NCBI RefSeq assembly: GCF_964204645.1
Contig: NC_134026.1
Coordinates: forward strand, 19,782,467 to 19,846,466
Source of the DNA: Tubulanus polymorphus
Lineage: Eukaryota > Animalia > Nemertea
DNA: 64,000 nucleotides
Direction of reading: 5' to 3'
Under the pieces are notes generated by a model. That model ran no database searches. It was not told the DNA's origin and saw nothing but the letters and a program-made list of their open reading frames with translations. The position numbers and the translations under genes are program-made. Positions 10,706-50,061 of this stretch are shown here, one piece after another (position 1 is the stretch's first letter; every line of letters begins with the position of its first letter).

Positions 10706-10870
10706 CTACAATTTTTCGTTGCACGATTGCTTTAGTTGGTTCATGCTTTTCAGCCACGCGATGCAGTTTAAAGCTCCGAGTTCGTCGCCGTAAATCAAAG
10801 CCGTAGGAGTCATCATAACGTCGTAGTGAATCACGCTTGTCGGAACAGCCGCCGTAAAATAAACACCAAC
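10706..10870 (-). CDS. TEP1: TEP1-like terminal coding exon with stop codon (TAG at 10706..10708)
   Basis: VGVYFTAAVPTSVIHYDVMMTPTALIYGDELGALNCIAWLKSMNQLKQSCNEKL*. Acceptor ttctgcaaattttcag| in phase 0. Confidence 0.8.
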   Translation of the reverse strand, partial: VGVYFTAAVPTSVIHYDVMMTPTALIYGDELGALNCIAWLKSMNQLKQSCNEKL

Positions 10871-11380
10871 CTGAAAATTTGCAGAAGGTTTGCATTCAAT
10901 TTCGTTCATAATACAGCAGTCCACTTAATCTGGATAATCAAGGAGTAATGAAGTTGATTTGAGTAACGAGCAGTCTTTTTTCACATGATGTTATGTATGC
11001 GAACCACAAGTATAAAAATCAGATCAAAATACAGATTGAACTATTCCAAATTTCAAGTGGGTCTGATTCTATCAAGATATACAGGCCGTATAGTGTACAA
11101 ATAGAATTTTTAGTAATAAGAATACAGTATAAACCTATGGATGAACTACTTTCTTTTAAGCCCAGTTTTAACTGAAACCTTGGGGTCAACTCAGTAAGCT
11201 AAAAGCTAATTCAACATTGGTTTTTCTTTTCAATTATAACTACAAGTTTGCTCTTAGACCACAGTTGAATCTCATTATCAAGACCTCAAACAAAATTTAA
11301 AAAATTCAAAAGTAACATTTTGTCATATCAAGATTCTCAGAACATAACATAAATTTGTGTATACATATATATATATATAC

Positions 11381-11482
11381 CTGCTTCCAATTGAAGGTCC
11401 AAACTTTGATAGTTTTGTCACGAGATGACGTTAATATAGTATCCATGTTGATAACAATTCCAGTCACTTCAGCTGAGTGTGC
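11381..11482 (-). CDS. TEP1: TEP1-like WD40 exon
   Basis: AHSAEVTGIVINMDTILTSSRDKTIKVWTFNWKQ. Acceptor tttttttggtgcag| and donor CAG|gtatat. Confidence 0.8.
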
Positions 11483-11814
11483 CTGCACCAAAAAAATACA
11501 ATCAATTATCACTCTACGGATGCCTTAACTTACAAGCTACAATCATACTAGGGTTTTTGACCTCGCCTTGAATGACTTTGCCTGTATCTTATTTTCAAAA
11601 AATGGTGCTTGCCCATTTTTCTGGTGCATAGGCTCTTCCTACAAACTCTGGATAGATTTTTTCAAGATCTGCCTTTGATTGTTAAGCTATGAATATTTCA
11701 TGAACATTTCCCTTGCAGCCCTTGTAGCAAATGCATTATACATTTGTAAATGGTCAGGCACCAGTTTCATCATCTATAGACCAGTCTATAGAAATGTTCC
11801 CAGGGATAAATTAC

Positions 11815-12000
11815 CTTCACCGATTTGAGGATTTTCAAATTCTCCGAGGAGGTCACAGTCGTGACGCATCCACGCGTATCTCCGATCAGTAATTGTGTAG
11901 GATGTTCATCAGCTGCGGTGACTGCGGTGATGAAGTTTGCTTGGTCTTTCAAAGCACCGATATTCACAGTGGCTTTTATGTACTCCGACAGCGCATGACC
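11815..12000 (-). CDS. TEP1: TEP1-like C-terminal WD40 exon
   Basis: GHALSEYIKATVNIGALKDQANFITAVTAADEHPTQLLIGDTRGCVTTVTSSENLKILKSVK. Acceptor tcctgatag| and donor AAG|gtaatt. Confidence 0.7.
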
Positions 12001-12496
12001 CTATCAGGAGAAAGCAAGAAGTGAGATATGCTGCAAAACTAAGATGATTTCTGAATCAGGGAGGACTAAAGTAAGTTTGCGGTAAAAGAAAAGCCAATAA
12101 GCAAGAGTTTAACGAGAGGAATCACCCCACTTACAATGCGATTTGCATGTATTTAATTGAGAATACCGAATTAATTGACAATAAAAACATCTGCACATTA
12201 TTGTCAATTATATCCATGCTCTATTTATTCCTAGAAATCAAATCCGAATCGACTGGCCAAGACTCTACTGCCGATTTTTGGTGAGTATTCTTTAAGTTGG
12301 AATGTATATTAGTCACCTGTAGAATTAGATTTGGCTCCTTCACAAGAATGACCATCATTCAGATATCAAATATAGAGAAATCTGGATCCAGCTCCAATGT
12401 TACGGGTCAAAACTTGACTGCCGCATTGAAAATAAACTAAATCTGGATTTAGCAATTTAACGCTGCGTTTGTAACCATATTACCATGCATACATAC

Positions 12497-46810: not shown

Positions 46811-47274
46811 CTGCAATAATACCTTTTGTCGGATATTTTTAACTAATAACTCCGCCAAAAGTGACCTACAAGTGAGTTTTGCTACAGACAAATGCCAAAA
46901 TTGTGATACCACAAAAAATGCTTCATCTCTAGGCTGGTATTATAACGAGCTTTGGTTGTACATAAAAGGATCGATCTACATATATTGGGGAATAGTTTGA
47001 ATATATTTACCAAGCTGGTATTTGTCGAAATCGGGAAATTTCGCGACCAACACTCTTCTCAAGGCTGAAGGCAATGATCCGAAGTTTAGCCTACTATCGT
47101 CGAATATCTGAGAATAAAGGGGATACAACTCAAATAATAGAAGTACTATTCAAACCTACATTTTGATTTAACTCAATTAGCAACAAGTGTACTGCAACTC
47201 CCTTTGCGTTTATTTCCAAAAACAAGCTATATTCGTGAATGTCAAGATGGTATTTTACATGGGTCAGTACATAC

Positions 47275-47436
47275 CTGGTAAAGTGTGGGTACATCGATCC
47301 AGTCAGATGGCAACATTACACTGCTTTTGAAGTACTTTTTCAGATACGCGCGGCATCCAGGTACGTACGCCGACAAAGCCAGCAAGAAATTAGCAGTCGA
47401 ACGAATATTGAGTTCGCGTCTCGTGTACAAAGCCAG
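47275..47436 (-). CDS. TEP1: TEP1-like upstream exon (TROVE-region candidate)
   Basis: Acceptor tgtcttcccattag| and donor CAG|gtatgt bound the peptide LALYTRRELNIRSTANFLLALSAYVPGCRAYLKKYFKSSVMLPSDWIDVPTLYQ, which is Ro60 MLFALAIC-like. Phase 0 in and out. Confidence 0.5.
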
Positions 47437-47916
47437 CTAATGGGAAGACAAAAATTTCAAAAAATCTTTAGTATATTAAGCGTCCGAGTCCATCGTTGAA
47501 GTCAAATCACCCTTTTTAATCATCCAATGGTGTTGTTTGACAATAGTAAGATTAAGAGTACCAGCATGCCAATCTAAATCAAGCTCAGAGCTGGAGTTGT
47601 TAGTTTCTAGACATTTCTATCACTGGATGACATTTGAGGTGATCTTTTGCAACAACAATTTCAAACTGAAATGGCTGTTAGACTTTAATCCCAAAAAAAT
47701 CCACAATAATTTCATTGATAGTACGACTATATTTTGGCCCCCTCCTCCTAGCCATTTATTGTCCAGGGGCCGGTTGCTCAAAAGTTAGTGGATAAATACA
47801 ACATTAACAATGAACTTTTAGTTTTCAATATGTCAACTATCCACTTGTATCTAATCCACTTTTATAAAATCGCCCCACCAGAGGAGAAGTGACATTCATC
47901 CACTTACAGTATCTGC

Positions 47917-48180
47917 CATCCTCCCTCAGCAGGGATTCGAAGCTGATGGCATCACACTCAGCCACGGCACGAACCCCTGCCACACTAGACCGGGTGCGCA
48001 GGTACATGCGCAGGTTTGCTGTACAAGGGAAAACCCGGGCTAAAATAAAATGGGATATCTGGCTAATAATGTCATCCTCTAAGCTACGCATGTAGCTGCG
48101 CACTCGCTGTAGTGTGGCAGGGCTTCGGTACCGTGGCAATCTCGATGCTATCAAGTTCGAATCCCTGCCGCTGGAGGATG
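47917..48180. mobile_element. tRNA-derived MITE (family D) with 36-bp terminal inverted repeats and an 8/9 matching 9-bp target-site duplication
   Basis: catcctccctcagcagggattcgaagctgatggcatc ... gatgctatcaagttcgaatccctgccgctggaggatg. Flanks are AGTATCTGC (47908..47916) and AGTATCAGC (48181..48189). Confidence 0.75.
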
Positions 48181-49380
48181 AGTATCAGCATCCCTCTCAG
48201 TTGGCAAACACAGTGTAAACATGCTCAAATGCCACTTTTAGGTAAATGGAGCCTCATACATGTTCTAGATAGCCTGAAAAATCATGAACATACCTTCAAA
48301 ATGAACTCAGGATCGGATGATGTGACATCTTCAGCGAGTTTAATCAGCTTTAATCTCTGTTCGTCTTGTTGATCCTTGTAATTCGGAACGTGAATCAACG
48401 AGGAACTAACAGCATTGATCAATGTACGCTGTAATCAAACATAGAAAACATTGTCTATAGTATCATCAATTTTTACTCCAATATTTTTTCTAGTTGTCCT
48501 TCACAATGGGGTTGAGCACAGCAGGGGTACCTGAGCTCAGCAACAGATGCTTTGCCTATCAGTCGGTTAACTTTGAATATGATTTCTAGGCTCCCGCATC
48601 CAAATGTCATTGGACAAGCCATGAACAAAATAATTTTCTAGCCTTTGGTCTAGTTTTCATCGATAACAGCCTGAGATCGGCTTTTTTAATGTTTGGTATA
48701 GTTAGCATCAAAAATAATAATAGCCCCTTTCCACTGAGCTGTTGATAAGTTAAACTTCATGCAGCTTTGAACAGGAAAGTTTTTTGTATGCATCTGAATG
48801 ACAGAACTGATGTTTCTGAACCAATTGACAGTGGTAGAGAGATCCAGATTTGAGGTGCTTTAACTAAGAATGAATAGCCGCTGAACAGCTTCAAATCGAT
48901 ACTATGAGGTGATAGACGGTCCTAAGAACTAGAAGATCGAAATCAGCCTATTCATTTCTGTGAAAAGTTGATTACCGGTAGATTCTCATTGAAATGTAAA
49001 CGATATTTTGCGTGCAGAAGATATACAGGGCATAATGGGTAACACACAGTTGCAGGATTGAAAAAGGACTGAGGGCCCAGGAGAGCAGTGCGTTCAATGG
49101 CACAATTCACCGATCCTTACTAAACTTTCAGGGCCCAGCTGCTTAACGAAAACTAACTTAGTTACTGATGTCTGCTATTAATTGATAGGTGCCAGCATCT
49201 TTCAATGGATATAAAAACTAATCACTAAATCACTAAATCCATCACTGATTTATGCATCGCACTGTTGTATAGATGTACTGAAAGATGTACCATACTTAGG
49301 AGGAGTCAGTTCCAATCATCACCACATTATCAACCGGTTGATTCATACCAACCTATAAGCAATGCGATTCATAGCAAAAA

Positions 49381-50061
49381 TTACGAATTTACCTTTGATT
49401 CTTCCAAAGTTTCCCCGAAAGCAGGTTCGAGCGGCATAGAAATAATCGGCAATTCTTCGGCGACGAGAAATTTTTCATCCGCAAATGCCTCATCGGTCAA
49501 ATCATAATACGGCATCGGATGAACGATATTATCGTGAACGGTGTAACTTTCTCGTTTTTCCGTCTTCAAACCGGCGGCGCCTGAGGATCGTACGGCAGAC
49601 GGCTTGAATAGCGGCGAAGACGACCGACCAGACAACGACGTCGTCAACAAAGACTTGTAAGTCGATGATGAGCCCGTAAGCGTCGATGATAAATTCCGAG
49701 TAAGATTTACGCCGCTCAATCTCAGACTATTTCCCGAAATCGAACTTCCCGATAGTAAATTCGATTTTGTCGTCAAACTGCTCTTCCCTGATAAACAAGT
49801 TGTTAAACTACTTTTCCCTAACGACGCAGATCCGACATTAGCACCTCTCAAGCCATTCGAGTCAGGACTTGGTATTTTATAGAGGAGCGGATTTTTCAAA
49901 CTGCCGAGAGATGTCAAAGGTTTTGAAGCGACGTCGCTCTTTCTTCCAGAGACATTTTCCGACCTTGAACGGCTACTGCCTTTTAGCGGAACTTTGCTAA
50001 CGGAAAAACTCGCTTTGGTTCTTTTATCTGCTGAAGAAAAAAAAACTTGGTACTCATGCAA
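49381..50061 (-). CDS. Ser-rich 226-aa ORF ending in a consensus donor; candidate 5' coding exon of the TEP1-like gene, or a separate disordered protein
   Basis: 681-nt ORF in AT-rich DNA, M at 50061, ending ...FGETLEESK|gtaaat in phase 0. This is phase-compatible with the exon at 47275..47436. No homology recognised. Confidence 0.35.
   Translation of the reverse strand: MHEYQVFFSSADKRTKASFSVSKVPLKGSSRSRSENVSGRKSDVASKPLTSLGSLKNPLLYKIPSPDSNGLRGANVGSASLGKSSLTTCLSGKSSLTTKSNLLSGSSISGNSLRLSGVNLTRNLSSTLTGSSSTYKSLLTTSLSGRSSSPLFKPSAVRSSGAAGLKTEKRESYTVHDNIVHPMPYYDLTDEAFADEKFLVAEELPIISMPLEPAFGETLEESKVNS

Follow-up and report, generated by a model that had tools for sequence, protein, structure and literature searches.

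The 64,000-nucleotide stretch of Tubulanus polymorphus DNA analyzed here (hereafter the window) very probably carries, on its minus strand, a single intact protein-coding ortholog of TEP1, the telomerase/vault-associated protein 1, with the canonical domain order and an RG box in the linker between its TROVE and vWA-like domains. The novelty of the locus as such is low, as it is an ordinary TEP1 ortholog of canonical architecture that has already been annotated automatically in RefSeq.

Gene model and domain order

The RefSeq protein XP_074640264.1 (2640 aa; “telomerase protein component 1-like isoform X2”) can be threaded, with splicing, onto the minus strand at 100% identity over 2640 aa, with 54 coding exons, GT-AG boundaries and consistent phases at 53/53 introns, and no stop or frameshift in the 7,923-nt coding sequence. 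That 2640 residues should match exactly through 53 canonical introns cannot reasonably be put down to chance. The complete coding region occupies 10706..50337 (window coordinates are used throughout, and all features lie on the minus strand), with the ATG at 50337-50335 and the stop codon at 10708-10706, and its introns have a median length of 472 nt and range from 83 to 7,682 nt. Exon use is based on the automated RefSeq model together with considerations of frame and of conservation across species. Isoforms X1 and X2 are one Ala apart and arise from a NAGNAG acceptor at 50030/50027.

This gene structure agrees well with the preliminary description, which had proposed one TEP1-type gene of at least 40 kb ending at the 10706 stop, with more than 45 phase-consistent exons joined at GT/AG sites; the ten peptides it quoted were all found on the minus strand where it had placed them (10/10). 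Some of its boundaries have to be moved. The 5' limit it gave, 50061, is only the mechanical TTG start of an open reading frame; exon 2 (49393-50027) starts at 50027, and the ATG is carried by exon 1 (50241-50337). It had also marked three gaps in the chain, two of which do hold coding sequence, namely exons 1-3 beyond 47.4 kb and exons 30, 31 and 32 (24519-24428, 23850-23736, and 23647-23548 from the threading) between 23.2 and 24.9 kb; the third, between 26.3 and 26.8 kb, is plain intron (intron 25). The WD40 part, counted at about 25 exons, has 22 (exons 33-54). Small exons outside the stretches covered by the quoted motifs include exon 14 (41308-41228) and exon 48 (14087-14006).

From the N-terminus, a Ser-rich low-complexity region is followed by a Ro60-type TROVE ring, a disordered basic RG/RGG linker, a vWA-like domain, the DUF4062 domain (NIR, TIR-like NADase), a NACHT domain, a winged helix, an APAF1-like helical domain, and WD40 propellers of about 1,000 aa. 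Pfam, PDB and fold searches support this architecture, so that the earlier reading of a TROVE/vWA - DUF4062 - NACHT - WD40 order as that of TEP1 was right in every architectural respect, and a domain search of the assembled coding sequence recovered TROVE, the vWA-like DUF5920, DUF4062, NACHT and WD40. Nearly all of the best 120 database matches listed are full-length, at about 2,200-2,900 aa, and the informative names among these 120 are TEP1, telomerase protein component 1 and TROVE domain-containing protein. After XP_074640264.1, the nearest matches among those listed are TEP1 of Lingula, molluscs, amphioxus and echinoderms (E down to 1e-284), and vertebrate TEP1 used as a query recovers the same protein family. 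Human and mammalian TEP1 (UniProt Q99973) are collinear with the Tubulanus protein through the TROVE, vWA-like, DUF4062, NACHT, helical and WD40 domains, with about 40% identity in the TROVE-vWA region, and the invertebrate proteins (Lingula anatina, Branchiostoma, Glandiceps, Acanthaster, bivalves, gastropods) are collinear over their full length with 49-56% identity in that region.

The TROVE-vWA module and its RG/RGG linker

The N-terminal region (aa 1-237; 49414..50337, exon 1 and most of exon 2) is of low complexity as judged by composition, being rich in Ser, Leu and Thr with 22% Ser. A Pfam search of aa 1-1640 gave no match to the TEP1_N repeats (PF05386) at E<=0.01, and this Ser-rich region stands where mammalian TEP1 has those repeats. 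Among the named matches the repeats are found only in mammals (they also occur in unnamed ones), and they do not define the family.

TROVE is a Ro60-type ring of helical repeats that binds RNA, and Ro60/Rsr is an RNA chaperone composed of TROVE and vWA. The TROVE domain of the Tubulanus protein (aa 238-650; 42983..49413, end of exon 2 to exon 12) is matched by PF05731 with E=1e-101, and the vWA-like domain (DUF5920, aa 681-856; 39429..41822, exons 13-17) by PF19334 with E=6e-14. The AF2 model of aa 230-880 (pLDDT 82.4) matches Ro60/Rsr/TROVE structures (1yvp, 9nen, 2nvo, and others) at full length in Foldseek, with 614-641 aligned columns, probability 1.00 and E down to 6e-13, so the predicted fold spans the whole chain, ring and vWA alike; its alpha/beta half resembles both vWA domains and the corresponding half of Ro60. 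In contrast to this agreement in fold, sequence identity to Ro60/Rsr is only 12-17%. Ro60 ends after the vWA domain, while in Tubulanus the TROVE-vWA unit forms the N-terminal part of an NLR-like protein of 2640 aa and has large disordered insertions, namely the RG loop and an acidic/basic segment at aa 392-416. Nor does the sequence show a canonical MIDAS motif: where the first vWA beta-strand is expected to end, it reads LIFADVNNT vs. an ortholog consensus of ILCNVGxxM, which at the sequence level is non-canonical for the MIDAS DxSxS.

The RG box is encoded by exon 11 (44357..44495; 139 nt, aa 571-617) and itself spans aa 585-612 (44371-44454). It reads GARGRGRGRGGVRGRGGRSRG, which contains RGG-VRG-RGG and seven RG dipeptides in di-RGG/tri-RG spacing; the RGG/RG motif is reportedly defined, by Thandapani et al. 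in 2013, as di-RGG (RGG-X0-4-RGG) and/or tri-RG. In the AF2 model the box is a disordered loop of low pLDDT between two long helices, leading from the last TROVE helix to the vWA-like domain. The preliminary description had noted an RGG-box exon within the TROVE region, one not known from vertebrate TEP1, and both statements hold: the exon is real and required by the reading frame, and all 14 scorable named vertebrate proteins (14/14) have only 0-2 RG/GR dipeptides in the linker. The implied unusualness of the box does not hold, as many invertebrate TEP1 orthologs have one there too, at the position seen in Tubulanus.

An RG box was scored at this linker in 23/139 scorable orthologs (a count that includes both Tubulanus isoforms), among them Lingula (a brachiopod), Branchiostoma (amphioxus), Glandiceps (a hemichordate), bivalves and gastropods, and the starfish Acanthaster has one too, though it is unscorable by the motif screen. 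In these invertebrate proteins the box sits at the identical position in the linker, after FPFRFFSAYEVL, and the differences from Tubulanus are in detail only, in linker length and in a second RG box that some of them carry. This second box, at an upstream TROVE insertion after QLAKYNK, is present in 11/141 orthologs, among them several bivalves, Batillaria, Capitella and Lineus, and not in Tubulanus. Lineus, the other nemertean sampled, has its RG box at the QLAKYNK site and a Lys-rich linker without one. Most other orthologs have basic linkers, either Lys/Pro-rich or Lys/Arg-rich, the latter in most vertebrates, sea urchins, crinoids and most unnamed orthologs. Among the vertebrates scored (primate, deer, turtle, sharks, teleosts, and hagfish), most have a non-RG linker rich in Lys and Arg; the mammalian linker is about 90 aa long and Lys/Arg-rich without RG, unlike the RG/RGG linker of Tubulanus. 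The patchy presence of the box, with Lineus lacking one at the linker, could mean that it is dispensable.

Judged from the sequences compared, the RG box is a lineage-variable form of a linker that is always basic; in many lophotrochozoans, and in deuterostomes other than vertebrates, this linker is rich in RG. RNA binding and methylation by PRMTs are both well established for RGG/RG motifs, and the box most likely serves as an auxiliary element that binds RNA electrostatically and may be methylated on Arg, rather than forming a new domain. A competing explanation, to which we give appreciable if lesser weight, is that it is functionally neutral low-complexity filler, in which any basic disordered spacer suffices and the linker drifts between RG-rich and Lys-rich forms. 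In its favour, ortholog linkers vary from about 40 to 135 aa in length and widely in composition, the linker is disordered in the AF2 model, and Lineus combines a Lys-rich linker with an RG box inserted elsewhere. However, RG boxes recur at this exact site in distant phyla and again at the second TROVE insertion, which points to selection favouring RG content close to the RNA-binding ring; the Arg and Gly codons of the box are mixed, so that it is not a DNA microsatellite and simple repeat slippage is disfavoured; and the RNA-binding and PRMT-substrate roles of RGG/RG elements in general also weigh against mere filler. A more ambitious version of the auxiliary-element reading is that the linker box, with the optional QLAKYNK-site box, is an ancestral bilaterian RNA-binding, PRMT-regulated element of TEP1 that tunes the choice of small RNA by the vault/TEP1 NADase and gave way to linkers rich in Lys and Arg in some lineages, vertebrates and sea urchins among them; we regard this as speculative and rather doubtful.

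The gene model is computational, and GC-rich repeats can yield RG-rich open reading frames, so exon 11 could in principle be an annotation artefact, or the locus a decaying pseudogene. This is very improbable, as omission of exon 11 causes a frameshift into an early stop, RG boxes occupy the same position in other phyla, and the 7,923 nt run without stop or frameshift with catalytic and NTP-binding motifs intact. At its acceptor the exon has AG and a polypyrimidine tract, and its donor reads GTAAGT.

DUF4062, NACHT and WD40 domains

The DUF4062/NIR TIR-like NADase domain (aa 878-1092; 29085..38649, exons 18-21; PF13271, E=3e-16) aligns continuously to PDB 11gz_A, the crystal structure of the human TEP1 TIR-like domain (E=3e-67), with 58% identity to human TEP1 over the first 104 aligned residues. 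The largest intron (intron 18, 30792-38473; 7,682 nt from the threading) splits this domain, and exons 18 and 19 form one continuous match to 11gz, as expected from the split DUF4062 within one gene that had been proposed. Because the intron interrupts a single DUF4062 fold, the TROVE-side and NACHT/WD40 halves belong to one gene. It is scarcely credible that two neighbouring genes, one Ro60-like with TROVE and the other NLR-like with DUF4062-NACHT-WD40, were wrongly fused in one model, as a 7.7-kb intron holding an independent GPCR open reading frame between the two parts might suggest, when that intron falls inside a fold and not between domains, the frame is unbroken across 53/53 junctions, and the same collinear full-length architecture recurs in over 100 orthologs spread across many phyla.

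The alignment pairs Tubulanus R890, K936, R958 and E990 with human R908, R954, R976 and E1008, so that the catalytic Glu (E990, 30629-30631) and 2/3 active-site Arg are kept and the third Arg (human R954) is replaced by Lys. The roles of these residues in human TEP1, whose DUF4062 is an active TIR-like NADase in vaults, are described in two 2026 preprints (10.64898/2026.05.01.722283; 10.64898/2026.09.04.749371).

The NACHT/STAND P-loop NTPase core (aa 1121-1251; 27428..28538) is matched by PF05729 (4e-9), PF13191 (1e-9) and PF20703 (2e-8), the first two exceeding their cutoffs. As in human and mammalian TEP1, its Walker A (GKSGSGKT, aa 1147; 28437-28460) and Walker B (LILFLDGLD, aa 1235; 27452-27478) motifs are intact, as is the catalytic Glu of the DUF4062 domain. 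An NWD1-like winged helix (aa 1358-1479; PF25469, HTH_NWD1, E=1.6e-7) and an APAF1-like helical domain (aa 1499-1602; PF17908, APAF1_C, E=2.8e-4, slightly below the curated cutoff) follow at 23167..25997. The WD40 beta-propeller region (aa 1620-2640; 10709..23115, PF00400 E=3e-91) includes two families specific to TEP1, Beta-prop_TEP1_2nd (15616-19101; PF25047, E=2e-71) and Beta-prop_TEP1_C (10754-11479; PF25048, E=1e-31).

Proposed function and significance

By analogy with the human protein, we infer RNA binding, vault association and NADase activity for Tubulanus TEP1. The TROVE ring, probably helped by the adjoining basic RG loop, would bind small structured RNAs, and the NACHT/WD40 module may drive or regulate oligomerisation in the manner of NLRs and APAF1. 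In mammals TEP1 binds vault RNA and telomerase RNA; the 64-kb window has no match to any Rfam family, that of vault RNA among them. The combination of a TIR-like NADase effector, a STAND NTPase and a repeat sensor, with the catalytic Glu conserved, is shared with other DUF4062/NIR-NACHT proteins, both human (NWD1, NWD2, NPHP3) and bacterial (Avs-NIR, Swarozyc, Vulcan/Vesta). Unlike TEP1, these proteins are without a TROVE-vWA RNA-binding module, and the bacterial systems differ further in their role in anti-phage abortive infection.

The locus has little value as a discovery and adds context to the two preprints on the human TEP1 NADase. Our literature search on TEP1 and RGG found no description of an RG linker, and the presence of an RG/RGG box beside the TROVE ring in many invertebrate TEP1 proteins, with vertebrates lacking one, is a minor comparative point absent from that search. 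The retention of the catalytic Glu and of the NTPase motifs in a nemertean ortholog is consistent, at the level of sequence, with NADase activity being ancient in animals, and the RG/RGG linker offers an inexpensive way to test how TEP1 engages RNA.

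Gene model and surroundings

The sequence is AT-rich (approximately 38% GC), and the stop-free segments of its minus strand form a long series of clearly coding pieces, which we joined roughly into a query for a protein database search. The best match was a protein of Tubulanus polymorphus itself (XP_074640264.1, P0001, "telomerase protein component 1-like isoform X2", 2640 aa), followed by Lingula, mollusc, amphioxus, hemichordate and echinoderm TEP1 orthologs with E-values down to 1e-284. When this protein was searched against the window by tblastn, collinear HSPs were obtained from 50337 to 10709, mostly at 90–100% identity, and a custom exact spliced matcher threaded it whole at 100% identity through 54 coding exons, with all introns GT-AG. 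The ATG is at 50337 and the stop at 10706–10708, giving a CDS of 7,923 nt, and the introns are 83–7,682 nt long (median 472 nt). The two RefSeq isoforms differ by one extra Ala, found in X1 only, at the NAGNAG acceptor of exon 2. The ten peptide motifs of the preliminary description were all located on the minus strand at their reported places, while the 5' end it set at 50061 proved to be merely a mechanical ORF start, the real one lying in exons 1 (50241–50337, minus strand) and 2 (49393–50027, minus strand). Of the two stretches it had left open, 23.2–24.9 kb holds exons 30–32 and 26.3–26.8 kb is intron 25, and the WD40 region comprises 22 exons rather than about 25.

A merger of two genes into one model was considered and rejected, as the largest intron (intron 18, 30792–38473 on the minus strand, 7,682 nt) interrupts the DUF4062 fold rather than separating domains: exons 18–21 jointly give a continuous match of aa 878–1092 to PDB entry 11gz_A (titled "Telomerase protein component 1") with an E-value of 3e-67. 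Because the intron lies within this single fold, the reading frame is unbroken across all 53 junctions and the architecture is likewise collinear in more than 100 orthologs from the protein database search, a merger is very unlikely, and the single long TEP1-type gene originally proposed holds.

Several other features share the window. An intronless rhodopsin-type GPCR ORF of 369 aa (33062–34171, minus strand; Pfam 7tm_1, 3e-14) is nested in intron 18 on the same strand as TEP1 and coincides with the window's local GC maximum (0.449 at 32–34 kb). Just downstream of TEP1, two near-identical intronless GPCR ORFs of 319 and 320 aa (1990–2949, minus strand, and 6736–7698, plus strand; 7tm_1 and Srw-like) stand in inverted orientation and appear to have arisen when a chemoreceptor-like gene underwent a recent inverted duplication. 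Upstream and divergent, head to head with TEP1, is a gene with exons of a SUV3/SUPV3L1-type mitochondrial RNA helicase (58852–59169 and 62985–63308, plus strand; Pfam DEXQc_Suv3, 4e-25 and 3e-11), the first recognised exon being approximately 8 kb from the TEP1 ATG. At 60200–62036, about 20 tandem copies of a 91-bp unit (183-bp higher-order unit, 87–88% identity) apparently occupy an intron of this gene and create a spurious 225-aa minus-strand ORF. At the window start, a truncated plus-strand ORF of 191 aa (18–593) gave no Pfam match; its Cys/His-rich tail (CTNCN...HTILEC) recalls the C terminus of an ORF2 from a non-LTR retrotransposon. Scanned in full against Rfam at gathering thresholds, the window gave no matches; its introns thus harbour neither vault RNA nor Y RNA nor snoRNA.

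Domain architecture and fold

Pfam searches of the protein place TROVE at aa 238–650 (E = 1e-101), DUF5920, the vWA-like part of TEP1, at aa 681–856 (6e-14), DUF4062 at aa 882–980 (3e-16), AAA_16/NACHT/nSTAND1 at aa 1112–1251 (1e-9 to 2e-8), HTH_NWD1 at aa 1358–1479 (1.6e-7) and APAF1_C at aa 1499–1602 (2.8e-4, slightly short of its cutoff). WD40 propellers extend from aa 1620 to the end (WD40 family, 3e-91) and include Beta-prop_TEP1_2nd (aa 1971–2184, 2e-71) and Beta-prop_TEP1_C (aa 2554–2625, 1e-31). The NTPase motifs are intact, with Walker A (GKSGSGKT) at aa 1147 and Walker B (LILFLDGLD) at aa 1235. Of the architectural features of TEP1 that can be tested, all are present but the N-terminal repeats (PF05386), and these were found, among named matches, in mammals only. 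The gene is a TEP1 ortholog, and its locus was already annotated in RefSeq before this analysis.

The relationship to Ro60 needed a fold search, since a sequence-only PDB search with the TROVE-vWA region returned just two TROVE entries (E = 2.7e-9) and did not find animal Ro60. An AlphaFold2 model of aa 230–880, built from a 43-sequence alignment, was confident (pLDDT 82.4, pTM 0.78), and its top PDB matches by Foldseek were Ro60/Rsr/TROVE structures over 614–641 columns (9kop, 9l5y, 1yvp, 2i91, 2nvo and 9nen among them), below which came isolated vWA domains on the C-terminal half of the model. The initial label "TROVE/vWA" is therefore valid at the fold level. The canonical DxSxS MIDAS motif is not visible in the vWA part, where the sequence reads LIFADVNNT.

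The RG/RGG box and its distribution

The Arg-Gly-rich stretch (aa 585–612, window 44371–44454) is encoded by exon 11 (44495–44357, minus strand, 139 nt), whose acceptor is good and whose donor reads GTAAGT. Without it the reading frame shifts and soon meets a stop; the exon is therefore obligatory, and the box is present in both RefSeq isoforms. An origin as a microsatellite or simple DNA repeat was rejected in view of the heterogeneous codons (CGT, CGA, CGC and AGA for Arg; GGA, GGG and GGT for Gly). A 154-bp unit repeated 3.9 times at 76% identity (43403–44001) lies in intron 11, directly downstream of this exon in the sense of transcription. The box had been described as sitting inside TROVE, which is correct by Pfam boundaries; structurally, it belongs to the linker from ring to vWA, in a low-confidence loop (model residues approximately 359–393) flanked on one side by a long helix (FPFRFFSAYEVL...) and on the other by the vWA half's first helix.

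We scored this linker, delimited by the conserved motifs FPFRF and YRxAL, in every retrieved ortholog. It is RG-rich in 23 of 139 scorable sequences (counting the two Tubulanus isoforms), including the brachiopod Lingula, the cephalochordates Branchiostoma lanceolatum and B. belcheri, the hemichordate Glandiceps, many bivalves (Mercenaria, Pinctada, Pecten, Mizuhopecten, Mactra, Tegillarca, Saccostrea, Potamilus) and gastropods (Aplysia, Biomphalaria, Bulinus, Physella, Pomacea, Batillaria, Patella). The starfish Acanthaster falls outside this count, being unscorable by the motif screen, and has an RG box at this site too. The box is thus common in invertebrate TEP1 and not peculiar to the Tubulanus gene. 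Two Branchiostoma models (P0008, P0019) are missing exactly the stretch that runs from YEVLNQLEKD... to ...NAHM and includes the RG box, a stretch that a same-species model (P0106) contains; this suggests either exon skipping or model error for the amphioxus exon.

A second RG-box site is the TROVE insertion that follows QLAKYNK, used in 11 of 141 sequences; seven sequences carry both boxes. The other nemertean, Lineus longissimus (P0018, aa ~447–520), and the annelid Capitella (P0077, aa ~279) have their box at this second site, which in Tubulanus (exon 6) is a Lys/Gln-rich segment without RG; across lineages, RG boxes therefore use two alternative TROVE-ring loops.

The absence of an RGG box from vertebrate TEP1, as the preliminary description had it, is borne out by retrieved primate, deer, turtle, shark, teleost and hagfish proteins, whose linkers (approximately 27 to 92 aa, in most ~90 aa and Lys/Arg-rich) carry 0–2 RG/GR dipeptides each, the scored models being short or partial and full-length human TEP1 not among them. 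The query was the TROVE region of a working human TEP1 sequence, validated indirectly: it shares 93% identity with a primate protein in the database, and it places R908, R954, R976 and E1008 at their published numbers. This sequence served only as query and for residue numbering, and the vertebrate conclusions rest on the retrieved database sequences.

Basic linkers rich in Lys/Pro are found in most of the remaining orthologs, which comprise sea urchins, crinoids, a chiton and a sponge among many others. The RG box may be merely one kind of basic spacer. That it is instead a functional and ancestral element, RNA-binding or PRMT-regulated, we consider rather doubtful. A literature search returned no paper pairing "telomerase protein component 1" with "RGG".

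Predicted function

DUF4062 is a TIR-like NADase, and human TEP1, alone and in vaults, hydrolyses NAD(P)+, releasing nicotinamide and ADPR(P); the reaction uses E1008, with contributions from R908 and R976, and R954 is in the BB loop (2026 preprints; 10.64898/2026.05.01.722283; 10.64898/2026.09.04.749371). In the alignment to 11gz, human R908, R954, R976 and E1008 correspond to Tubulanus R890, K936, R958 and E990, and with E990 at the position of E1008 the catalytic glutamate is conserved. While the domain content is read directly from the protein, we infer RNA binding, vault residence and catalysis by analogy with the human protein. Tubulanus TEP1 is probably vault-associated, and given the conserved glutamate and the intact Walker motifs it would most likely function as human TEP1 does, as an RNA-binding, NLR-like NADase.
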